64,000 nucleotides of DNA from Phallusia mammillata. Its lineage: Eukaryota. Shown here piece by piece: positions 5,852 through 43,932 of this stretch. Location: positions 15,500,001 through 15,564,000 of the forward strand of contig OZ281494.1 in assembly GCA_965637545.1 (NCBI GenBank), written 5' to 3'. Within the stretch, counting starts at the first letter, position 1. Every line of letters begins with the position of its first letter. The translations under genes were made by a program, and so were the position numbers. A model generated the notes under the pieces. That model worked only from the letters and a program-made list of their open reading frames with translations, searched no databases and was not told the origin of the DNA.

Positions 5852-5935
5852 TCATTTCTGAAGAAGCCAGACCCCTTTCTATTAAGAAAGGGTGTCTGAA
5901 ATCTGCTGTCTGGCATTAGTGGTGTTGCAAATACA

Positions 5936-8900
5936 ATGCCTGGATCAAATTCTAGCACATCCTCTCATGAGGATGTGGACGGAGTGCTTCAAGAAAAGTT
6001 GCATTCCTTGAAATCATCTCGGAGTGGGCATTTGGGTGCTGTTACCAAAGCCGAAAATATTGTTTGTAACTTGATGCTAGATGTTTCTAATATCAAGGAA
6101 GTACCAGCTGCAAAGGAAGCTTTTGATAGTGCACTGACAAAGTGCTTGGACTGTTGCAAGGAATACCATTCTGTGATTCCAGATTCACTCTACTCTCAGA
6201 AACAAGAGGCAGTGGACAAGATCAAGTCCCTGGAGGAAAAAGGGGACAACATAAATTCTATGTATCAAACATTTCTACAAAATGCTGCTGTGGAGTTGGG
6301 TTCTACTGGTGGGCATTCGAAAAGCTCACATCACTCAACTGGGTCAAGATTGTCCTCTAAATCCAGTTCACATCGTTCTAGTAGAACAAGCTCAAGATCT
6401 TCACACCACTCACACCATTCCAAGGCTCCTAGTTTGAAATCATTCCACTCTTCTTCTTCAATATCAAGCAGAAGCACTACATACTCAATGAGGGAGGTGC
6501 GGCGTGCTCAGCTAGAAAACAAGCTGACAGAGTCAGAGGCACAATTAACTCTCCAAGCATCAGCTGATGCTGTTAATGATGCACTGATGAAAGCTGAGGA
6601 GATAAAACGTAAGGCCAGAGAAGACGAGGAGGCCTTAAAGATGATGCTTGAAGATGAAAAGGAAGAAAATGCCCAGCGAAGAAGGGCAGAAGAAGAGGCA
6701 AATGCCATGCGTAAAAGGGCAGAAGAAGAGGCCATAGCCAAAAGAAGAAGAGAAGAAGCTGATGCAGAGAAAAGGGCGATTAGAAGAAAAATGGAACAGG
6801 CTGCAGCTCGACGGAAAAGAGAAGAGGAAAGGGCTGAAGCAATTTTAGCCAAGGCAAAAATGGAACATCGACAAAAATCTTACAATGCACAGTTGAAAGT
6901 GCAGCGCAAGAGGCATGAGGTTGACCTGGTTGTACTTGAGGCTGAACCAGTGGGATCCTGTGATTCTCGTCATGAATACAGGTTGGATATGCCCCCACTA
7001 AATCAGATAGATGACGCCACGGTGGGAAGCTCTGCTTGTCTACAGCAGTCTGCCCATGACCTAGCTCCGATGGACTGTCCAATGCCTGGTGAAATGCATA
7101 CCATTTCTGGTTTCACCCCTCTAGCCACAGCAAAGCTGCCACAGCCTGAATATCCTGTCGCTCATCCAGCAGAACAGCTAAATGTTTCTGCCGATCCATA
7201 CTTGCCTGTATGTACACAGACTGACATAAAGCAGGAGACTCACAGTCCTTCTATGGGGCCGGTCTCCAAGTACAAACCTCAGCCAGATGAGAGCTTCACC
7301 AAAGATGACTTTCACTATGGAAAGGCCATGGTGGACTTGGTGGAGAGTACGAAAACCATGCTGCATGGCTTTACACTGCCCAAAAGGGGGCTCCCAAAGT
7401 TCTATGGGAATCCAATGAATTACCACAACTTTATGAAGAAATTTGATGAGATGATCACAAGGCATTTTCCTGATCCTGCTGTACAACTTCAGTACCTTGT
7501 AGACATGTGTGAAGACAAAGCCTATGATGTTGTCCATGGATGTTGTGCCACGAGCCCACCTGAATTGGGTCTTGCTACTGCTCGGGAGTTGCTGAGAGAT
7601 AACTTCGGGCGCATGGACTTGGTGGTAAATGCACATGTCAAAGAGTTGACCAAGGGTCCACCAATTAGGACTGGGGACAATGAAGGTCTTCGTTCTCTTG
7701 CTACAAGTATGACAAATGCTTTAATGGTTTTTCGATCTTTGGGTTGTGAGTCACAGTTGGACTATTCCCAATTCCTAGTGGACATATTTCAGCGACTACC
7801 CAAGCACATGCAAAATACATTTGTCACAGAGGCCAGTTCACTCTACCGAAGGAATGGAAATGTGACATTCAGCAATCTGACATCGTACCTCAACCAGAAG
7901 GTGATGGATTCCAACAACATGTTTGCGGATGCATTGACAACAGTTAAGGAAAGGGATCCAAAGAAGGACAAGCCCCAGAAGAAGAAAGAACATGCTGTGT
8001 TCTCTGCACAAACTACTTTGGGCTCCACATCATGTGAACATGTTGACAAACCTAAACCTCCAGACCAAACAAGGAAGAAGAAGCCACAACCATGTGTGGT
8101 TTGTAACAAACCTCATCCATTATGGGTATGTGATGAGTTCCAGAAAAAGAAACAGTTTGACCGTTGGACAACAGTCAAGAATAACAACTTATGCTTCAAC
8201 TGCTTTTCACCAGACCACATGGCAAATGAGTGTGTCTGCTCCAGAAAGTGCAAGTCTTGTGAAAAACCACATCATACTCTACTTCATCGTGATGAACAGC
8301 GAAATATAGAAAAAACATCCACATCGACTGAGGAAAAGAAGAATGCTGAAAGTCCCAAGGAAAGCTCAACGACATATGTAGCCACTGTTACTACACCCCC
8401 TGCAGGAAGGGACAGGGTTAGACTCAAGGTGGTGCCAGTACATGTGTGGGGAAGGGATCTGAATCGTGTAGTGGAGACATATGCATTTCTGGATGAGGGA
8501 TCTGACACCACATTCTGCACGTCAAATCTGAAACAGAGACTCAAGCTTGAAGGAAAACAAGTTTCCAGAAGACTTAATGGCATAAGTGGCAGTAAGGATC
8601 TGCAGGGATACGAGGTCGGACTGTCCCTACAGGGGATTCAAGAAACAGATTCAATCCGTATTGAGAATGTACTGACGGTGGATGCTCTACCAACACTGAA
8701 GAACAGTATACCTACAATGGAAGATGTAAAGCATTATTCTCATCTGAGGGGATTGGACTTTCCAAAGTTACCTGATGCAGAAGTGGATATTCTCATTGGG
8801 GCCGGTACGCAGGAAGCCCATTCTATCAGGGAAGTGCGAACCGGGAAGCCAAGACAGCCAACAGCTATTCACACTGGACTTGGGTGGACCTTAGTTGGCA

Positions 8901-11900
8901 CTGATGCATCAGATGCATCAGAGGACAGTTGCAATGTTAACTTCGCCACAATTGGCAATAATGAACTACATGACATGTTCCAGAAGATGTATAATCATGA
9001 CTTTATGGATGACAAGTGTTCAAATGATGTCTCTCTATCTATGGAGGACAAAAGGGCACTCGCCATGATGAATTCGACTGTGCAAAGGAAAGGCAAGCAT
9101 TATCAGCTTGCGCTACCATGGAAGAATAAAAATGTAAAGCTACCTTATAACCGTGGAACAGCCGAGAAACGCCTTCTTGGTTTAAAGAGACGATTAAAGA
9201 CAGATCAGTCACTGTTCCAGAAGTACAGTGAAAAGATTAATGACTCGCTGAAGAATGGTCATGCCAGGAAAGTACCAGATGGAAAGGATCCACACCCGGG
9301 AAAGACTTGGTACATTCCACATCACTGCTGCACTGGTGGAAAGTTTCGGGTTGTGTTTGACTGCGCTGCCAAGTATGCAGGCACATCCCTCAATGAAAAT
9401 CTCTTACAAGGACCTGATTTGACCAACAACCTTGTTGGTGTTCTTCTTCGTTTTCGCCAGGAGAAGATTGCATTGATGGCTGACATTAAAGGAATGTTCC
9501 ATCAGGTTTTTGTGGACCCAGATGACTGTGATGCTCTGAGGTTTTTGTGGTGGCCAAATGATGACTTGTCCAAGCCACCTGAGGATTACCAGATGCTGGT
9601 GCATCTTTTTGGGGCAACTTCTTCTCCAAGTTGTGCCAGCTTTGCATTGAGAAAGGTTGCTGAGGATAATGAGAGCAATGCAACAAAGGAAACAACGGAT
9701 ACTGTCCTGCGGAATTTTTATGTAGATGATTGCCTGAAGTCGGTCAAGACTTTAGAGGAAGGTTCCCAGCTAGTCAAGGAACTGGATGAGCTACTTAAGT
9801 GTGGAGGATTTCACCTTACCAAGTACCTGAGTAACAGCAAAGAACTGTTAATGTCTATTAATGAAGATAACCTTGCTCCATCAGTGAAAGACATGGACTT
9901 GGATGGATTGCCAATCGAGAGAGCTTTGGGAGTGTACTGGAACACTGGTACGGACTGCTTCGAGGTCAAAGTGAAGTTGAAACCAAAGCCCTGCACAAGA
10001 CGTGGAATTCTGTCAACAATAAGTCAGTTGTTTGACCCCATGGGGTTTGTGCAACCCTTTATCTTGCCAATCAAAAAGCTTATGCAAGAATTATGCAAAA
10101 GAAACATAGGATGGGATGAAGCTATTCCCACCGAGTTTGAGGTTGCCTGGAAAAAGTGGCTGGGCAATTTATCACTGCTGGAATCAATTACTATTCCTAG
10201 ATGCTTTAAAACAATGGACTACATAAGTGCTGAGCTCCATTGCTTTTGTGATGCAAGCGAAACTGGTTATGGAGCTGTTTGCTACCTTCGCCTGGTAACT
10301 GGTGGTTCCTACCACTGCTCATTTGTGATGGGAAAGTCCAGAGTTTCCCCTTCAAAGGCAGTTACCATTCCCCGGCTTGAACTCACTGCTGCAGTGGTTG
10401 GTGTTAAACTAGCGCAGTTTGTGATTCGTGAGTTGGATCTTGAGTTGGAAAAGGTTGTGTACTGGACAGACTCCACTTCTGTGCTTCAGTACATCAGAAA
10501 TACATCACGCCGCTTTCCGACGTTTGTTGCCAATAGGCTGGCTGTGATTCAAGCAGCCACAGAACCAGAACAGTGGAGACATGTGGATACAAAGCAAAAT
10601 CCTGCAGACATTGCATCTAGGGGTTTTTATCCTGACCAGGTGGACAAGGCAAAGGCATGGTTATCCGGTCCATCATTTTTGTGGAAAGAAGAAAGTTGCT
10701 GGCCAGAACAGCCAGCTGTGTTACAATTGCCAGAAGACCATGAAGATGTTGAAGCCAACACAATTGTAGTAGAAATTGTGCAAAATGGTTTGGACAACTT
10801 GCTAGACAGATACTCTTCATACAATGCTTTACTCAAGGCCACTGGTTGGTTGTTGCGGTTCAAGCAGTACATGATGTGTAAGTTTTCAGAGAAATTACGC
10901 AAACCTGCACCCAAGGCAGGTCTGCTGACGGCAGAGGAAATGGAAACAGCTGTCCATCAAGTGGTGAAGCTGGTTCAGCATCAAGCATTCGGATCTATGT
11001 CATCGGATCTTAAGGAATACCAGAGCTTTTCCCACTACTTGGAATCTCAGCATTCGAATGGATTACATATTCGAAACCGGGCTCTTGGTAGACTTAGCCC
11101 TATGAAAATAAATGGCACTATGAGAGTGGGAGGTCGCCTACAACATGCAACTCTGCCGGAGGACATGAAGCACCCTATGATCTTGCCTAGTCGTCACCAT
11201 GTTACTGGGCTGATTATACATCATTACCATCAGCGAGAAGGACATAGTGGAACTCAACACGTTCTAGCAGCCACCCGTGAGAGGTACTGGATTCTCAAAG
11301 GCCAATCATCTGTTCGTCACTACTTGAAGGACTGCAGAAAATGTCGTTTTTGGAAAGCACAAGCTGGTAGGCAGTTGATGGCACCCTTGCCGGTTTGTCG
11401 TGTTGAGTCTGGACAGTTACCCTTTACTCATGCAGGGGTTGACTACTTTGGCCCTCTAATGGTAAAAATTGGACGCAGTCATGTGAAACGATATGGCTGC
11501 ATTTTTACTTGTATGGCTACAAGGGCTGTACATTTAGAGCTAGCTGGCTCACTGGACACTAGTTCATTCATACAGGCACTTCGTAGATTTGTGCTGAGAA
11601 GAGGATCTACCACTAAACACATATATAGTGACAATGGAACCAACTTCATTGGAGCTGACAGAGCACTCCGCGAAGGGATTAAAGCATGGAATCAACAACA
11701 GATACATACAGAGCTACTACAAAAAGGAATTGAATGGCATTTCAATCCCCCAGCTGCCAGCCACCAAGGTGGTGTATGGGAGAGAATGATTCGCTCTGTG
11801 CGAAAAATTTTGCAGTCACTGACTGGAGACAAGATATTGTCTGAGGAATCTTTGAACACCTTCCTGATAGAAGTGGAATCGATCTTAAACAACAGACCAC

Positions 11901-12313
11901 TGACACCTGTCAGTGATGATCCAAAGGATGGGTCTGCTTTGAAGCCCATTACTTTGTTAGCTGGTGGAATTGAAGCTACATTGCCACCTGGAGAATTCAT
12001 CAAAGCAGATGGCTACAAGAAATCCTGGCGGGCAGTCCAATGGTTGAGCGACCAGTTTTGGAAGCGCTGGGTGAAGGACTATTTGCCACTTCTGCAAAAA
12101 CGCCAGAAGTGGTTGCAACCTGAGAAGAACTTTGAAGTTGGAGATGTTGTGTTGGTAATGGATGCCAATACAAAACGAGGAGTATGGCCCAAAGGACTGG
12201 TCGAGGAGGTCTTTCCAGATCATGACGGGATGGTGCGGAGAGTTCGAGTCAGAACTTATGACTCAACTTTGATGAGGGACATTCGAAAGCTGTGTTTACT
12301 TGAATGTGGCTAA
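5936..12313 (+). CDS. BEL/Pao Gag-Pol polyprotein (2125 aa)
   Basis: Gag DUF1759-like LPKFYGNP; three Cys/His knuckles (CVVC..H..C, CFNC...H...C, CKSC..HHTLLH); protease FLDEGS; RT YVDD; Pao RNase H FCDAS...WTDS; integrase HHCC plus VDYFGP/SDNGTNF/WERMIRSV. Order PR-RT-RH-IN. Confidence 0.97.
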   Translation: MPGSNSSTSSHEDVDGVLQEKLHSLKSSRSGHLGAVTKAENIVCNLMLDVSNIKEVPAAKEAFDSALTKCLDCCKEYHSVIPDSLYSQKQEAVDKIKSLEEKGDNINSMYQTFLQNAAVELGSTGGHSKSSHHSTGSRLSSKSSSHRSSRTSSRSSHHSHHSKAPSLKSFHSSSSISSRSTTYSMREVRRAQLENKLTESEAQLTLQASADAVNDALMKAEEIKRKAREDEEALKMMLEDEKEENAQRRRAEEEANAMRKRAEEEAIAKRRREEADAEKRAIRRKMEQAAARRKREEERAEAILAKAKMEHRQKSYNAQLKVQRKRHEVDLVVLEAEPVGSCDSRHEYRLDMPPLNQIDDATVGSSACLQQSAHDLAPMDCPMPGEMHTISGFTPLATAKLPQPEYPVAHPAEQLNVSADPYLPVCTQTDIKQETHSPSMGPVSKYKPQPDESFTKDDFHYGKAMVDLVESTKTMLHGFTLPKRGLPKFYGNPMNYHNFMKKFDEMITRHFPDPAVQLQYLVDMCEDKAYDVVHGCCATSPPELGLATARELLRDNFGRMDLVVNAHVKELTKGPPIRTGDNEGLRSLATSMTNALMVFRSLGCESQLDYSQFLVDIFQRLPKHMQNTFVTEASSLYRRNGNVTFSNLTSYLNQKVMDSNNMFADALTTVKERDPKKDKPQKKKEHAVFSAQTTLGSTSCEHVDKPKPPDQTRKKKPQPCVVCNKPHPLWVCDEFQKKKQFDRWTTVKNNNLCFNCFSPDHMANECVCSRKCKSCEKPHHTLLHRDEQRNIEKTSTSTEEKKNAESPKESSTTYVATVTTPPAGRDRVRLKVVPVHVWGRDLNRVVETYAFLDEGSDTTFCTSNLKQRLKLEGKQVSRRLNGISGSKDLQGYEVGLSLQGIQETDSIRIENVLTVDALPTLKNSIPTMEDVKHYSHLRGLDFPKLPDAEVDILIGAGTQEAHSIREVRTGKPRQPTAIHTGLGWTLVGTDASDASEDSCNVNFATIGNNELHDMFQKMYNHDFMDDKCSNDVSLSMEDKRALAMMNSTVQRKGKHYQLALPWKNKNVKLPYNRGTAEKRLLGLKRRLKTDQSLFQKYSEKINDSLKNGHARKVPDGKDPHPGKTWYIPHHCCTGGKFRVVFDCAAKYAGTSLNENLLQGPDLTNNLVGVLLRFRQEKIALMADIKGMFHQVFVDPDDCDALRFLWWPNDDLSKPPEDYQMLVHLFGATSSPSCASFALRKVAEDNESNATKETTDTVLRNFYVDDCLKSVKTLEEGSQLVKELDELLKCGGFHLTKYLSNSKELLMSINEDNLAPSVKDMDLDGLPIERALGVYWNTGTDCFEVKVKLKPKPCTRRGILSTISQLFDPMGFVQPFILPIKKLMQELCKRNIGWDEAIPTEFEVAWKKWLGNLSLLESITIPRCFKTMDYISAELHCFCDASETGYGAVCYLRLVTGGSYHCSFVMGKSRVSPSKAVTIPRLELTAAVVGVKLAQFVIRELDLELEKVVYWTDSTSVLQYIRNTSRRFPTFVANRLAVIQAATEPEQWRHVDTKQNPADIASRGFYPDQVDKAKAWLSGPSFLWKEESCWPEQPAVLQLPEDHEDVEANTIVVEIVQNGLDNLLDRYSSYNALLKATGWLLRFKQYMMCKFSEKLRKPAPKAGLLTAEEMETAVHQVVKLVQHQAFGSMSSDLKEYQSFSHYLESQHSNGLHIRNRALGRLSPMKINGTMRVGGRLQHATLPEDMKHPMILPSRHHVTGLIIHHYHQREGHSGTQHVLAATRERYWILKGQSSVRHYLKDCRKCRFWKAQAGRQLMAPLPVCRVESGQLPFTHAGVDYFGPLMVKIGRSHVKRYGCIFTCMATRAVHLELAGSLDTSSFIQALRRFVLRRGSTTKHIYSDNGTNFIGADRALREGIKAWNQQQIHTELLQKGIEWHFNPPAASHQGGVWERMIRSVRKILQSLTGDKILSEESLNTFLIEVESILNNRPLTPVSDDPKDGSALKPITLLAGGIEATLPPGEFIKADGYKKSWRAVQWLSDQFWKRWVKDYLPLLQKRQKWLQPEKNFEVGDVVLVMDANTKRGVWPKGLVEEVFPDHDGMVRRVRVRTYDSTLMRDIRKLCLLECG

Positions 12314-33357: not shown

Positions 33358-34994
33358 ATGAAATACACAGAGGCGGCTGCAACGTTTTTGTTGGTTGGAT
33401 TTTTCTTCGGAGTCTGTACACAAGGTATGGTGGAAAAATTCAAGCAAGTAAAATTAAAGAGTGAAAAAAAAATTAAACGTGAATTTGCAAATGCCTAAAA
33501 GTGATATATATTCTGATTTTGTTTTAAGTTTAATATTTAAATAATGGTATGGCACAAACTGTAACAAATCCTCGTTGATATTTTTGCCTTGATATTTTTT
33601 TTAAGGATAACGTGGTTACTTATATGTTTTTTTTTAGCTTGCCACATTCCGACCCATGTTGCGAAAAGGGAAACCAGCACACAGACAGCAGAGGAGCAGG
33701 CCATAGAACTGATTGAAACATTTTTTCCTCCTTGTCTGACTACTGAAACTGAGTTTGACGGGGTAGATTACAGCAGTGTGGTCGCATTCTTTGTGGAGTT
33801 TTCGATATGGTATCAGATTTCAACAGAAGTGTACTGCAGGTATACGCACATTCCACATAACTTTGCAGCGACATAGTCGCACGATTTGGTTCTATCGAAC
33901 TCGCGTTACAAGACCCCGTTTGGGAACTGCTAAAAAACAAAAACCGCCCATGATTATATGGTGTGAAGCTATTAGCATTGCTGTTGCACAATAAACATTG
34001 TCAACCAAGATAACCTACTGTAATAGAAATCGCTAATTTATATCGTCTGCAGTGGAACTAACGACACAGTTGAATGCTGGAGCTGGCGCCTGCAAGATGT
34101 TCTTCGAGGCGGTAGCATTCAACTAGCTGCAGCGAAAGAGTGTGTAAAACAATTCTTTTTCTATGCAAACTTCGGTCTGAAAGGTTTGTTAGTTGAAAAA
34201 TATGCATATCTAAAGCAGGCCAATAACAGATCTGCCGAAGGTTTCCTTCCATTTATTTAGGACTTAAAGGGTTAACTGAACTTAATCATACCCAAACTGA
34301 ATTGGACGTCAGAACTGAAGTTGGTCCTGTTGTAGTAAAGTTAATGACCGCTAAATGAATTTAGGCGACCAATATACGACAAAGCAATTTTCCTACGTGT
34401 TTCAAGTTAGATTAACATACACTTCTTTTACCATAAGTCTACATTCTTTGTAGAAGGTACGAGGTTTGAGGTACCGAAGGAAAGCGAAACTTACACAGAT
34501 CAAGTGAACAACGTTGACTGCCCGGACCGCACAGTGGAAAAATATAATCTATGTGTCGAGAACTACCTTTTAAAGTACCAGGACACAGTAAACCCAATAC
34601 CGAATTTCACATCAGTTTTGGGCTTCGTGGAAAACAAAGTACAATGCGGGTAGGATATATTTGTTACATTGGAGTCAGTACAATATGTTGTAAAATTTAG
34701 GTTGGACAAAATGCAATGTGTAAGTTGTGTGTTTTGAAAGCAACTTAACCAAATCCTCCATTTAGGACGGATAACTGCAACTGTGGGGAAGTGCTAAGCA
34801 AGGATCAAGACTTCCAATCTTATTTTGAGAGCAAAAGCCTTAACTGCGACAGTTGCTGGTCAACACGACTTGGAGGATTGGTTGAAACGGATACGTTGCT
34901 CAACGCGGCAACTAAGGAGTGCGCTGCGATGCTTCAAGATAGACTCACTACTGATCGAATTTCTCCAAGGTTGGCAACTGACTTGAAATTGTAA
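33358..34994 (+). CDS. Uncharacterised secreted Cys-rich protein with an internal two-fold repeat (274 aa)
   Basis: TATAAAA at 33291. Exons 33358-33424, 33638-33839, 34053-34183, 34454-34649 and 34766-34994 total 825 nt in frame. Signal peptide MKYTEAAATFLLVGFFFGVCTQA. AATAAA at ~35012. Confidence 0.8.
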
Positions 34995-35021
34995 TCGTAT
35001 GCTGTTTTACAAATAAAATAT

Positions 35022-37441
35022 TTAAATTTTGTTGTTGGAATCTGAAGTAGGTGGGCTTTTGTCACTGGAAACAGAGTGCAGAGTTTCTTGTTTCTGCCTG
35101 TATTGCAAATAGTCTTCACCAGTTAGCAGACCGTCCATTGTATGGTTTGCTTCCTCCAACTTTGGCATAACAATTGCAACATACCTGCACAGTATGAAAA
35201 CAAACTGCTATTTTTGCAAATTAACAACGAACTAGAAGGGTGACTTAACACATTTTTCCATTGCACATACACTATGGTAGGGCTGTTATCAAATAAAGGT
35301 TTTAAATTTTTCAAATATTTTTTTTTCTTTCAAATCAAATAATTCAAATAATTTAGAATACCTGATACATAAGGCCCAGATTCATTATTAAATAGTATAT
35401 AAATAAGATACTTAAAATTACTAAACAAATTTTGTAAGCTCTCATAGTCATTAAATCTAGGCTACATCTTTTTTCTGTTTAAAATAACAAATTAGTTTAG
35501 ATAGAGATTATGCTTCAGTCATTTGCCGTAATTCGGCAAAACCATATGTATTTCCATGTGTATTTTTCACTTTATGTTAATAGCTTTTGTTTGGATACTC
35601 TGCTTGAGTTGAATTGTGATTTTACATTTTATTCACTTGCTTGAATAACTTTAATATTCCTGGAAGTAACTGATACTGAAATGAACAGTACATTGTCATG
35701 CTTTTTGTCTAGCATTTTGGGGAGAATGGGTTACGGAACATTAATATATGGCTGAAAACATATGTTGCAGTGCCTCTGTGTAACCGCAATTTCACAAAAA
35801 TGTCACCAATGTTTTCAAGTAAATTGATTTTGCACATATATCGAGGTTTACTGCATAGAAAAAAATGATTTGATTATTTGAAATGTGTCAAAAATTATTT
35901 GATAAATTTTCAAATAATGAAATAATTATTTGTTTGATAACAGCCCTACACTATGGCATATTTTAAAATATATCAATATATTGCCAATACTCGTTTTATA
36001 TTGGGTCCCATATCAGCCACTGACTGTATAACCTTAGTTGTTTGGAGGCAGAAACTCATGGGTCCCCCCACAATATTGTAAATAATTCATTTTATGAGAT
36101 AACCATGAGAAAAGTTGATGTTGTAAGGTCAAACACAGTGATGGGTACTAAATAATTATGCTATATAAAGTACAAGTTTCAATGTCATTCAATTGAAACA
36201 GTGTCTGAACTTTGCCCTATTTTTAGTTTTATCTTAAAGGTAGGATCCAGCCGGTTCGCACCGGTTCTATATAATCGTCTCACGAAATGTTGTGAGATCA
36301 GCGAACCGGTTAGCATTACTGGTTGCTGTCAATGGACTTTTTGTAACAGAACCGGCTGACAAAAAATTTGAATCCCACCGTTGAGTAAAACACAACAATC
36401 GACACCTTTCAATTGTCAATTCTACAAGCTGTTGAAATTGCATTTAGTTCAAAATCATCAGCTATTTTAAGTGACAGGTGGGGTAAATCTTGGGGTTATA
36501 GATTTAATACGACAATTGAACCCTATAAATGACAAATTCTACAAGAGAGGCGTTTCGCATATGCCTGGTTGCCTTTCTTAAACTATTACACCACAGAAAC
36601 CACTTGCTTGTGGTGCCCAGCAGCGTATGAAAATGTTTTACACTTTGGGGGCTAACAGGGTAAATACCAGAGTTATCAAGTCACATGATACAGATGGCAC
36701 ATCTACATAACTATATCTCTATCAAAGGTTTCATGCCAAAAGTACATGGACAAACTTTACTGAAAAAAAAGAGGAAAAAACAGACCCATAAAGTGGGGAA
36801 AATCCTAAAAAAACTTAAAAACAGTGGAAGGTCTGTAATTTTTGCTCACCCCTCAGTTTCTGTTTTACTTTGAAGCAGCTTAGGTTTGGATAGCAGTCGT
36901 TCATTCATTTCAACAAGTTTTGCACGAATTCCACAAAATACAGTGTGTTGAGCTCCATCATCACATGTGACAATGCATAAAGGACTACTGGGGTTTAGCC
37001 ACTGAGCTCCACGCTTGCGCTTACCTGATACCACATTATTTGAGCGATCAAGTTTATCTGTAACCTAAGAAAATAGTTTATTTACATCCAAGCATGCACA
37101 AATGTCAGTGACCTGAAAGTTTAAATTGCTTGCCAACACATTGTATGAAAAAACATAATCCTTTCTGTGCGTACCTTGAAACTGACACTTGTTATTGTTG
37201 TTCCTGGTCTTAAAGCTGGATGAGTTGGGGCCATTGTAACAATGCAAATTCGATTTGAGTGACGAAGTATTCTTACATCATTCATATTTGATTTTGCTTC
37301 ACAAAAATCTGACAAGATTCCACCTTTTGGCAGATTGACCTTGTAACCACGAACAAAATACCTCTCCACAACAGAAGGACAAAGCACGGGCAAGGATTTT
37401 ACTGGAGCAGTATTGTCCTTATTTTGGTCATCCATAGTCAT
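35022..37441 (-). CDS. ABITRAM: Protein Abitram (FAM206A/Simiate), GCV-H-like fold
   Basis: Exons 37441-37175, 37063-36850, 35184-35022. Motifs PSVVERYF, LRHSNRICIVTMAPTHP, VSGKRKRGAQWL, LVEMNERL, EGYVAIVMPK. Confidence 0.9.
35231..36114 (-). mobile_element. 3' fragment of the Helentron-type element also found in PARP1, interrupted by a hAT MITE
   Basis: The reverse complement aligns with 57246-57456 (ctcatggttatc...ggggacccatgag...cacccttctagtt). Confidence 0.7.
35278..35948. mobile_element. hAT-type MITE nested in the ABITRAM intron
   Basis: TIRs tagggctgttatcaaa / tttgataacagcccta; perfect 8-bp TSD cactatgg. Confidence 0.88.
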
Positions 37442-37450
37442 GGTGAACAA

Positions 37451-38103
37451 TCACGATTGACTGTTTTGAATTTTATCACCGGACTCAAAATCTTTAAAAC
37501 CCAGTTGTGATAAAGTTTCCTTTTGCATAAGATTTCTGACAAAAAAGTTTTATTGAAAAATGGCTAGCCTATTATATGTAGCTACAGGTTTGCATAATTT
37601 TTATACACTGCAAAAGTTTTTATAGCCACAACAACATACTTTTCCATTCGACAGAGAAGGTAGGCCTTTGATTCTTCTCTGCACAAACTGTTATCAGATT
37701 TGTTTTTCTTCAAACATTTCATGAACAATTCTTTCAGTTCTTTACACTCACCTGAAAAAGTAACACACATTACTATTATTACAGTGATGAAAAACAAACT
37801 TTGGTGTCTTATTATAATAAGTAAAAAGTAGCTTTCACAACCTCCACATCTGGTGTAAGTCAAGTATAAATGTGTATTCAGTAGATGCCTTAATAACACT
37901 CAACTTATTCAGATGTAGTGGGGTTGTAACCACATTCAATATTTTATATCAAATTCCTTCGAAGTAATGTCAACACAAGTTTCAAAATTTTACCAGTTTA
38001 AATGGAACACCAAAAACAATTTAGTACCGGCGTGGTCCAATGGAAACGATCCTTTTGCAGGAGGAACAGGTTTAAAACTTCGTTGAAACTGTCCTGTAGC
38101 CAT
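37451..38103 (-). CDS. COX19: Cytochrome c oxidase assembly protein COX19 (90 aa)
   Basis: Exons 38103-38028, 37751-37640, 37535-37451. [15 protein letters not shown], twin CX9[20 protein letters not shown]...LGF. Confidence 0.95.
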
Positions 38104-39623
38104 TCAAATTTGAAACCAAATTTTGTAAGCAAAACCATTCACAATCCTTAAACATAGGTCAATGACAATGTGCTTAACCTTTGTCAAAGATCCGTGCCAG
38201 TAGCGTTTTGGGATTTTTCCCAGTTGTGGAAGATTTCTATATTTTTCTTTTTTTAACTTCCAATACGCTGATATAATTATACATGCCGATATATGCTAAA
38301 CCCATCAATAGCCTACCTTAATTTCTTCATACTTTAAAACAGGAGTGGGCAAACTACGGCCCGACAAATGTTAGTAAATATGAAAGAGAAAGTTACCGAG
38401 CAACGCTGAATAGTATCATGAGCATAGGCGCAAAGTTTCAAAAGATTTTGCAAATCGCAGCTTGACACAATTTCTTCGTTCGATGAAAGTAAAAACGATT
38501 CACGTTACCAGTAAAAACGATTCACGTATCCACTGTGCACTGTTGACGCCAAAACTTTAGTCACTTCACTTTGGATCAAGTTTAGGTCGTCGCAGTACTT
38601 GCAAACGGACACTAAACACGGCTTTGGAATCGTTAGCACAGACCCGCACAACACCTTAAGATGGATACTAAAAGCGGCTGGCATTATTTAATGTTGGCGC
38701 AAGAATTATTAACAAAAAGACGTGGTGTAGCCATGTTGCCACAAACGCTTGTTTATTTCGAAACAATTACAATTGTCGCGTTTCAACCAATGTTTAGAGT
38801 TAGACGATCATTGAAGTGACAACAAGCGTATTTGTACGTAGTTTTTTTGTGGTAAATATACTGAAATTGAGAACTTTTGAATGCGAACTTTTGAAAATTT
38901 AGAACCAGTTCAAATTCCCTTTAATTTTAGGTTTACCCGTCATCTGCATAACGTTTTTAAACTACGAAATAATTTTGACTGTGCACTGTAGAACACTATC
39001 AAATTCGTCATGTTTGACAGGCCCTGTAGCTGTACCACGCGCATATTCTTCAGTGCGCTGTTTTGAAAGGAATCACAAAAACATAAGAGTGAAGACAGGC
39101 TGCATTTTTACTGCTGGTTAGGTGCCGGTTCAAGTCCAACGCCAAACAAAATATAGGGTTTAGTTCGGATTCTTTGGAAATTATAATTTGCGGTTCGGGT
39201 TTTATGAAATAAAAGGCTCAAAACGGTTTGCGGGTTCGGATTCATTTCCGGTTCGACTAAACTTACAAGCAAACTATATTTGTAGAAGCAAACTATATTT
39301 TGTAAACTCAATACTGGTGGTAAATGCCCTTAAACGAATAGTTTGTGACCATACAAAAGAAATATGACCCACTAGTCTGTTCAACAAATGCAGCAATAAC
39401 TTTTATTGCAAAAAACTACCCACTTCTACAAACAATTAAACTACTTGCTCAAAAACAAATCTCCGAACAAGAGAAAAGCATGTAAAATAGGCGAAACATA
39501 AAACAATGCATGAATAAAACAATTTTTGTGCAAGACAATCATAATTAAACAACAAAAATGTCGATTTGTTGCACAGCGAACTTTGCATAAGCAGTTTTTG
39601 CAGGACTAAGATTAAGTTATATT

Positions 39624-40580
39624 TCAGGTTTCGGCCACGTCGACCTTAATCAAACCCATCTCGCATTTTTTACGGTGTTCCCGCAAAGTCACAAATCGTC
39701 GCAGCGAATTCGTTCTCGGAAAGCGGCGTTGTCGGTTTGGGGCAACGTCTTCTTTTAAGGAAAGCAGCAAAGAGTACATATTGCTGTGACTACTACAACG
39801 TCGCTCCAACCCTTGTTTGTGGGTTTTCGTCTCAGCAGCATCGTTTTTGGTGTTGTCGGTCTCGTGAAACGGCGTCAAACGTGTGAAGGAAGACTTCGAG
39901 CTGATGTTCCACACCTTGCGCCCACCGTTGTTGCTATTGGAATTGTTGTCGAGTTTCTTCGCCTTGAGGCTCAAATTTTCACACCTAAAATTTCTAAGCT
40001 TCGATGCAAAGGTAATCACGCCTCGGGACTTTGATTGAGGTGCTGTTTTTTTAGTGATCTGTTTCGAAAGTGGTGCTGTGACTTTGCAGTCCAGCAGTGC
40101 ACGTGTATGCATTTCCGTGTTTACGACTGATTTTGTCGGGTTTATTGTTTGTTGTGCACTTCTGTTGGCAAAACGACTCGTCGTCAAGTTCCGTTGTCGA
40201 TCCCATTGATGAAACCACCCGCTGATGTTTTTTTCAAATTTATGAATGTCACCAACGTTCTAAAGAAATGGTAAAATAGAAGTAATAAACAAAGAGCAAA
40301 TTAAACATACAATCCACGCAAAACGCACTAATACAGTTTGGAAAAGAATTTGGTTTATTATCCTTAACGTTTATAGCTGGTGTTGGAAAATGTTTTGCAC
40401 TGCATAACAAAACGCATTTTGACACAGGCGCAGCACTGTTTTGAGCAACAGTATTTATCGTATTACTACGAATGCCGCTTAAAACAATACCGATTACTTC
40501 TAAACCGGGTTACCTCAAATCTCTAACCAAGTTGTTATCTCCCGACTTACCATTCGATGTCTATCAGACGTAACTGTCAT
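39624..40580 (-). CDS. Unknown basic protein, paralog A (~221 aa)
   Basis: Exons 40580-40551 (MTVTSDRHRM) and 40259-39624. Shares N- and C-terminal motifs and intron position with 42992-43932. Confidence 0.7.
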
Positions 40581-42991: not shown

Positions 42992-43932
42992 ATGAAATTC
43001 AACGCCGACCATCTTAAGAGAATGGTAAGTCCCTTGAGTTATTGATTTTCTTACCAAGGCTGCTTGCTGTCGAAACCCATTATTGTAACTTATATGTTGA
43101 ACTTAATTGTTTACAGTGCGGCTGGTTTTAAAATTTCTAACAAACCGTACTTTGAAAAGTATCAACGGGGTTTAAATAATGTTTTTAATATTTTTAGACT
43201 GTTGCCGATTTGAAAAATTTGGAACAAAACATAAGCATGTGGTTCCATTTAAAAGACCGCCAGAAAAGTGTCGCCGCAACTGCCTTGGGCCTTCGCAAGT
43301 CGTTCACCCACAAACCGTGCAGTTTCACCTTCCAGGGGGCATCTAAATTATCCGAGAGGCATTCGAAAGCTGTTTTTGACTGCAAGGAATCCTTTAGCAG
43401 CTTGTCCAGTGCTGTTAAGGCCTTTTTGCCAAACGGAGGGGTAAACATGCCTGGAGTAAACGCAGATACCCAAAAACGCGTAAACCTTGAGGTTGCTCTG
43501 CGAAAGCGCTACAGTGTATTGTCACCGAAATTGGATAAATCGGAAACTGGCATTATAAGGAGAGAATGTAGCAGTCCTAAGAAGTTATTATCCGAGCTTA
43601 GAAAACCTCAACAGGCAAACTTGTTGCCAAGTCAAGTCTCTCCGTTACGAAATGGATTAAACGATGCCGCAGCGGAAAAGTGTCCTGTCACCGAAGATCA
43701 AAAGAAGACTGATGTTAATGCAAATACAGTATCAAAGCGCCTACTTCCCGCCTGCTTGACGCCAAACAAGCCAAAGCGACTTTCGAAATCAATTCCCCTC
43801 CGGAAAATCGTTATTTTACGTGAACATCACAAAAAGTGTGAAAATCGAATTAAACATCTGGAAGAAAAAACGGCACGCCTGCGCCTTCAGAAAAGCAAAC
43901 TAGAACAAAAGTGCACTGCGAATAAACTGTAA
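42992..43932 (+). CDS. Unknown basic protein, paralog B (~255 aa, C-terminal coiled coil)
   Basis: Exons 42992-43024 (MKFNADHLKRM) and 43198-43932. Motifs EQNISMWFH..DRQ and LREHHKKCE are shared with paralog A. Confidence 0.75.

Follow-up and report, generated by a model that had tools for sequence, protein, structure and literature searches.

COX19 and ABITRAM nine nucleotides apart in the ascidian Phallusia mammillata: a putative bicistronic mRNA in an animal with SL trans-splicing

Introduction

How is the second of two genes expressed when its start codon lies 9 nt behind the stop codon of the first? The question is of particular interest in tunicates, where SL trans-splicing is assumed to separate the products of close gene pairs. 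On the minus strand of a 64 000-nt stretch of Phallusia mammillata DNA (the window), the COX19 open reading frame ends with a TGA at 37453-37451, the spacer TTGTTCACC occupies 37450-37442, and ABITRAM begins with an ATG at 37441, in frame with COX19. The in-frame spacing has a 1-in-3 chance and therefore means little.

A sequence-only reading of this DNA had pointed to the tight spacing and to the lack of an acceptor AG between the COX19 stop and the ABITRAM ATG, and both observations hold. The spacer is without AG, and the nearest AG upstream is found, as had been said, within the last COX19 codons; it represents the first two bases of Ser88 (37461..37462) and lies 19 nt before the ATG. The extent assigned to the arrangement, 37175..38103, does contain the junction, but ABITRAM continues to 35022.

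Three explanations had been offered: an unresolved bicistronic mRNA, trans-splicing within COX19, and a readthrough fusion. We lean, with reserve, towards the first, in which ABITRAM would be reached by leaky scanning or reinitiation.

The two genes

The COX19 reading frame of 90 aa is assembled from three minus-strand exons (38103-38028, 37751-37640 and 37535-37451) and ends in the TGA. Exon 2, delimited by contig joints, carries the twin CX9C (CHCH) domain, which is recognized by Pfam with an E value of 8.7e-08, above the cut-off; the last coding part opens an exon, 37535-37175, that is shared with ABITRAM. An 11-residue protein motif, which we take to be a mark of COX19, is encoded in exon 1 and matches by eye a 94-aa fly ORF. 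Motif and twin CX9C are thus both present. The Atlas gave COX19 as a lead only (rank 4, score 0.82). Searches of the Phallusia genome with the DNA and with the CHCH domain revealed one copy of the stretch. A COX19 homologue search with a 44-residue query, consisting of exon 2 and in-frame intron codons, returned no candidate, and the single match in a metagenome scan (L002) was discarded as a chance match.

Where does the COX19 transcript begin? The 5' leader can be followed in contigs as far as 38155 (38104..38155), where record 3 of run X1 begins, with no other letters. These genomic letters extend beyond a candidate SL-accepting AG for the COX19 mRNA at 38147..38148 (pyrimidine fraction 0.61). 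At the 5' end of COX19, record 18 of run X8 extends past 38151 by 14 letters that do not align. Contigs of the upstream same-strand gene stop near 39400, and positions 38156-38319 are reached in none of the four runs examined, a gap that faintly suggests a separate transcript start for COX19. An upstream AUG with U at -3 (38136..38138) begins an ORF of 42 codons, which runs out of frame into COX19 and has its stop at 37736. This AUG and the COX19 AUG at 38103 have the context tgaATGg in common, with an in-frame TGA directly before each.

The spliced ABITRAM ORF encodes 214 aa from the ATG at 37441, and its joints are those found in contigs: coding exon 1 (37175..37441), exon 2 (36850..37064) and the coding part of exon 3 to the TAA (35022..35184). 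The product differs from the public P. mammillata 'protein Simiate' at 3 of 214 residues and has the same start Met; it is 62-69% identical to Ciona ABITRAM and homologous to named ABITRAM/Simiate/FAM206A members. Long ABITRAM homologues of 277-313 aa had been suspected to be fusions, but the CHCH domain is present in none of the 14 scanned. Within ABITRAM intron 2, a high-copy short repeat (36250-36380) draws thousands-fold contig depth. At 34454-34800 on the plus strand, record 16 of X8 contains the apparent last exon of a plus-strand gene, spliced in near 34454 and seemingly antisense to the ABITRAM 3' region, an overlap that makes the 3' end of ABITRAM indistinct in contigs.

Other ORFs in the window can be mentioned. 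Those of 211 aa (39624-40259, minus strand, transcribed according to contigs) and 244 aa (43198-43932, plus strand) have, to the eye, short motifs in common; they resemble last exons of diverged paralogues that are inverted relative to each other, and neither shows a Pfam family above cut-off. An uninterrupted ORF of 2137 aa at 5900-12313 on the plus strand presumably represents a Bel/Pao retrotransposon polyprotein, judging by its motifs.

Spliced RNA across the junction

The stretch was found in 20 runs, all of them assembled contigs, of which 14 are guessed to be RNA and none is RNA on record. Four of the 20 runs, from four studies, were examined, and these are taken as RNA because their contigs show spliced joints. 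The four introns, two per gene, appear as GT..AG joints in the contigs of all four runs. One 361-nt exon contains the COX19 stop together with the spacer and the start of ABITRAM, and in every one of these runs a contig piece is unbroken over 37535-37175 with the flanking introns spliced out. No variant letter is listed at the COX19 stop or spacer in the four runs, and junction-crossing contigs have depths of 11.6-76. Record 3 of X1, 975 nt from 38155 to 35026, contains the complete COX19 frame and ABITRAM up to 4 nt short of its end; none of the four introns is retained, and there is no other letter. Two independent, conserved ORFs are present on the same strand, and processed RNA is continuous over their junction in contigs.

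Spliced RNA extends over the junction with unremarkable depth, a statement about contigs that does not imply single molecules. A contig over two genes is not proof of a single transcript, and assembly can lose the 16-nt SL tip; thus an SL-spliced ABITRAM mRNA could be abundant yet unseen. Contig depth also cannot rank gene parts (run X17 has 7-14 on exons 1-2 of COX19 and 18 on the contig with ABITRAM). Binned depths in X1, X8 and X13 show no added cover from the COX19 introns or ABITRAM intron 1, which is weak evidence because contigs drop rare forms. Our inference is that individual molecules carry both ORFs and are the source of ABITRAM protein, by one route or another.

Comparison with Ciona operons

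Is the machinery for cutting such a transcript present? In the Phallusia genome, a pattern of the Ciona SL and an adjoining GT is matched 4618 times (two mismatches or fewer) vs 38 times for a control pattern, so that the premise of the earlier reading, SL machinery in this genome, holds; the matches include a 553-bp tandem array. In addition to the array, many exact SL copies are dispersed (loci for both: L003-L008 and C3 near 11.11 Mb), and unrelated sequence follows in all six examined, as expected of retro-copied trans-spliced RNAs. The Ciona Sm-site pattern behind TAAGGT is not enriched here (20 vs 68 for the control).

The closest ascidian parallels are the intercistron-less operons of Ciona (Satou et al., 2006, PMC1488885; Satou et al., 2008, PMC2760879). 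As here, the genes lie on one strand and intergenic DNA is absent, the junction is without AATAAA, and the same 16-nt SL is found in the genome. In Ciona, however, the acceptor AG marks the end of the upstream mRNA, which retains both stop codon and 3' UTR and receives its poly(A) on the G of that AG (PMC1488885), whereas the COX19-ABITRAM spacer is AG-free. The COX19-ABITRAM junction also lies inside a cis-spliced exon, unlike Ciona operon junctions. The same Ciona study reports that 19 of 19 downstream operon genes sampled are trans-spliced and that operon RNAs left uncut are a rarity: dicistronic ESTs represent 11 candidate operons among ~680,000 ESTs, and operon 41 yielded 2 dicistronic vs hundreds of monocistronic clones (PMC1488885).

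Could an ordinary cut of the Ciona type release ABITRAM? This is excluded, because the AGs before the ABITRAM ATG are all in or before the COX19 ORF and their use would cost the COX19 stop. Every AG that gives full-length ABITRAM lies upstream of that stop, and therefore COX19 needs an RNA that runs into ABITRAM. The AGs that follow the COX19 stop (37419, 37403) are behind both ABITRAM start codons, and initiation at the next in-frame AUG after them would lose the block S(V/I)(V/I)ERYF..GYKVNLPK, which is conserved in both Ciona species.

The distance itself is out of the ordinary. Three abutting Ciona pairs have stop-to-start distances of 201, 314 and 344 nt (summed from table rows), and a Phallusia control junction, where a CHCH gene is followed by an aminotransferase-family gene in a putative operon, has 246 nt, which include an AATAAA and, 23 nt ahead of the ATG, a U-rich AG. 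The 9 nt between COX19 and ABITRAM are far below all of these. Own-genome searches with Rpp14/Pop5 and Cmc1 gave no second tight junction that was readable, and a Cox20 search gave no match, which is uninformative.

Translation of the second open reading frame

COX19 and ABITRAM, which have an exon in common, probably belong to a single transcript that is spliced as a unit and probably not divided afterwards. The prediction is that COX19 is translated from the first AUG, a weak one, and that ribosomes reach the strong ABITRAM AUG by leaky scanning or by a restart just after the COX19 stop. How do the translation signals compare with this scheme? The COX19 AUG has U at -3 and G at +4, a weak context. 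ABITRAM Met1 and Met3 each have A at -3, that of the start being provided by the spacer. Control starts from the same genome show A at -3 in 8 of 9 cases, although these are few and hand-picked and are themselves putative starts. A bias for A or G at -3 is general in 47 eukaryotes, including Ciona (PMC2241899).

There are six full-context AUGs before ABITRAM on the spliced RNA, three of which are internal in-frame COX19 Mets; a seventh ATG, with which the X1 contig opens, is excluded from this count. None of the six has A at -3 and one has G. A purine at -3 in 1 of 6 upstream AUGs compares with 55% of 109 internal ATGs, a difference that is not significant (P about 0.07). COX19 has 4 internal AUGs in 270 nt vs ~3 per 100 nt in control exons (no significance computed). 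The start contexts fit leaky scanning without proof, and the six AUGs represent a real burden. In green-algal bicistronic mRNAs that are translated by leaky scanning, a weak first start is followed by a strong second one, as here, but AUGs are depleted before ORF 2, whereas six remain in the Phallusia RNA (Duenas et al., 2024, PMC11291117).

A restart after termination would likewise be compatible with so short a spacer. Reinitiation is usually inefficient once 90 codons have been translated, and work by Wall and colleagues from 2005 reportedly links, in its title, second-cistron translation to a lack of intervening AUGs. Two exon junctions lie downstream of the COX19 stop, the nearest 276 nt away. 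By the exon-junction rule of NMD, and provided that this rule applies in ascidians, an RNA with the COX19 stop would be more stable if the ABITRAM ORF is translated. In yeast, 80S-mediated reinitiation has been described (PMC11952965).

Related arrangements in other animals

Flies offer a precedent. Hayden and Bosco (2008, PMC2276209) described two twin-CX9C uORFs: one of 94 aa, with the 11-residue motif, precedes CG30290/Ppcdc and is conserved as far as a crab; the other, of 80 aa, precedes CG9288 and is conserved across Diptera. In FlyBase, both pairs are annotated as all di/polycistronic, with stop-to-start distances of 18 nt for Ppcdc and 19 nt for CG9288 (Crosby et al., 2015, PMC4528330, file S1).

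The main ORF of CG9288 is plainly ABITRAM by its motifs. Is its partner then COX19? This was considered and rejected, as the first ORF, CG42375, is a different twin-CX9C protein, presumably CMC2-like. The two fly pairs each share one half with the Phallusia pair: CG42496 (COX19-like)-Ppcdc has COX19 first, as here, but its partner is Ppcdc and not ABITRAM; CG42375-CG9288 has ABITRAM second, as here, but preceded by the CMC2-like ORF and not by COX19. In both, a small twin-CX9C mitochondrial ORF comes first and an unrelated ORF second, with a spacer of <20 nt. Unlike the fly pairs, the Phallusia pair, known here from assembled contigs, sits in an animal with SL trans-splicing, which flies do not have (PMC7986045).

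Two of 178 proteins from ABITRAM searches, both lobster models, join a Cmc1-family ORF to ABITRAM. These decapod CMC2-ABITRAM models (Panulirus XP_071520907.1, Homarus KAG7169033.1) resemble the Phallusia locus in that ABITRAM is downstream of a twin-CX9C gene. They differ in having a Cmc1-family partner instead of COX19 and in that the genes are spliced together in the annotation; they are possible mispredictions. A small twin-CX9C ORF in first place is already known from bicistronic mRNAs, and COX19-ABITRAM would add a new pair. A search of the literature outside subscription journals for COX19 with ABITRAM/FAM206A/Simiate, and for bicistronic COX19 or CG9288, found no paper on this pair.

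Is the pair also present in Ciona? The Ciona robusta ABITRAM model KY21.Chr1.981 (Chr1:7227926-7229214) measures 1288 nt in a span of 1289 bp, and its ORF occupies 443-1138 (supplement rows, PMC11273300, PMC10962819), which leaves a leader of 442 nt, with room for COX19. The model adjoins PRORSD1, and RAD50 is 6.5 kb off. The name COX19 does not occur among the KY21 table rows listed, where COX10, COX18, COX20, COA1, COA4 and COA5 are named, but this is weak evidence because both KY21 tables are incomplete. None of the gene names occurs in the supplements of eLife 49921, of which 12 of 14 files were covered. Our guess is that COX19 lies within the 442-nt leader, and we predict that the COX19-ABITRAM pair is conserved in Ciona.

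The KY21 models of CHCHD4 (ORF from 420) and CMC4 (ORF from 666) also have long leaders. A fly CHCHD4 transcript carries a 111-aa uORF (PMC2276209); no such upstream ORF is evident in Phallusia CHCHD4 (L020). Small mitochondrial genes may sit unannotated in the long leaders of Ciona models.

Alternative explanations

The unresolved bicistronic mRNA is the best supported of the three earlier proposals, by the contigs, the start contexts and the fly precedent, while what it says of translation and of single molecules stays conditional. The main rival, less probable but to be taken seriously, is alternative trans-splicing. Here the long RNA would give COX19, and most ABITRAM would come from a second mRNA whose SL joins the acceptor of COX19 intron 2 (37536/37535) or, with lower probability, an AG of exon 3; each transcript would give COX19 or ABITRAM mRNA, never both. 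The sequence-only reading placed the cut within the COX19 ORF and saw no splice acceptor between the two genes. The latter is correct, but a strong acceptor, that of COX19 intron 2 (37537-37536), lies 94 nt before the ABITRAM ATG, and its cis use is seen in contigs. Its pyrimidine tract is normal (0.61; five cis acceptors range from 0.61 to 0.83). Of the AGs in exon 3, that of Ser88 comes closest to the ATG; it is a less likely site and a poor acceptor, with a pyrimidine fraction of 0.33, the lowest of 12 AGs scored.

An SL at the intron-2 acceptor would remove five of the six upstream AUGs and keep one weak AUG (37528, -3 C), which opens a 25-codon uORF ending 9 nt before ABITRAM. SL copies are found in thousands in the genome. 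In Ciona, cis acceptors are often used for trans-splicing (PMC11155486), and operon 42 has the SL carried on exon 2 (PMC1488885). On the other hand, no SL-joined piece or loose end is found at the candidate sites among the contig rows listed for the four runs. The Ciona ABITRAM model keeps its 442-nt leader and would have no intron acceptor to use, because it spans 1289 bp for 1288 nt. Flies, in the absence of SL trans-splicing, keep both genes dicistronic. The idea of mutual exclusivity is itself not new, as an either-or yield of upstream and downstream products has already been proposed for all Ciona operons (PMC1488885). Bicistronic and trans-splicing routes can coexist.

It is improbable that the genes simply overlap, with an ABITRAM promoter in COX19 intron 2 or exon 3 and a COX19 mRNA that ends within ABITRAM. 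Overlapping mRNAs would merge into the same contig, and there is a candidate poly(A) signal, an AATAAA in ABITRAM intron 1 (37077..37082), the only one within 1.8 kb downstream of the COX19 stop, with weaker hexamers inside ABITRAM exons 1 and 2. But the AATAAA is 12 nt ahead of the next ABITRAM exon and its use needs intron retention, the contigs of all four runs bridge both introns of COX19 and intron 1 of ABITRAM, and the promoter would be confined to a 104-nt intron or to coding sequence.

Least credible, and unsupported by what was found, is UGA readthrough at a functional level to give a 307-residue COX19-ABITRAM fusion: the two ORFs share a frame across a UGA stop, but such a frame has its 1-in-3 chance, the stop is followed by U and not by the C of the leaky motif UGA-C(UAG), there is no unusual fold after it (z -1.34 and -0.92; junction -0.35) and no SECIS by Rfam in 34000-39500, COX19 is present in none of the 178 proteins, all from ABITRAM searches, the 19-nt spacer before fly ABITRAM is out of frame, and the compartments differ, COX19 being an intermembrane-space protein and ABITRAM cytosolic or nuclear.

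Concluding remarks

Does the locus stand alone? One can tentatively envisage, although we consider it rather doubtful, a hidden class of ascidian gene pairs that escape the SL machinery and are translated as bicistronic mRNAs, with COX19-ABITRAM as one member, common to Phallusia and Ciona; the synthesis of ABITRAM may then be tied to a twin-CX9C upstream ORF. The association of a twin-CX9C ORF with ABITRAM recurs in arthropods and in an ascidian, with different partners, and offers an evolutionary lead for which no discussion was found in the literature searched. This recurring tie, together with an SL trans-splicing host, adds to the interest of the pair. As resolution by SL would destroy the COX19 stop, the locus represents a clean test: it would reveal either translational bicistrons in an SL animal, or trans-splicing into an upstream ORF.
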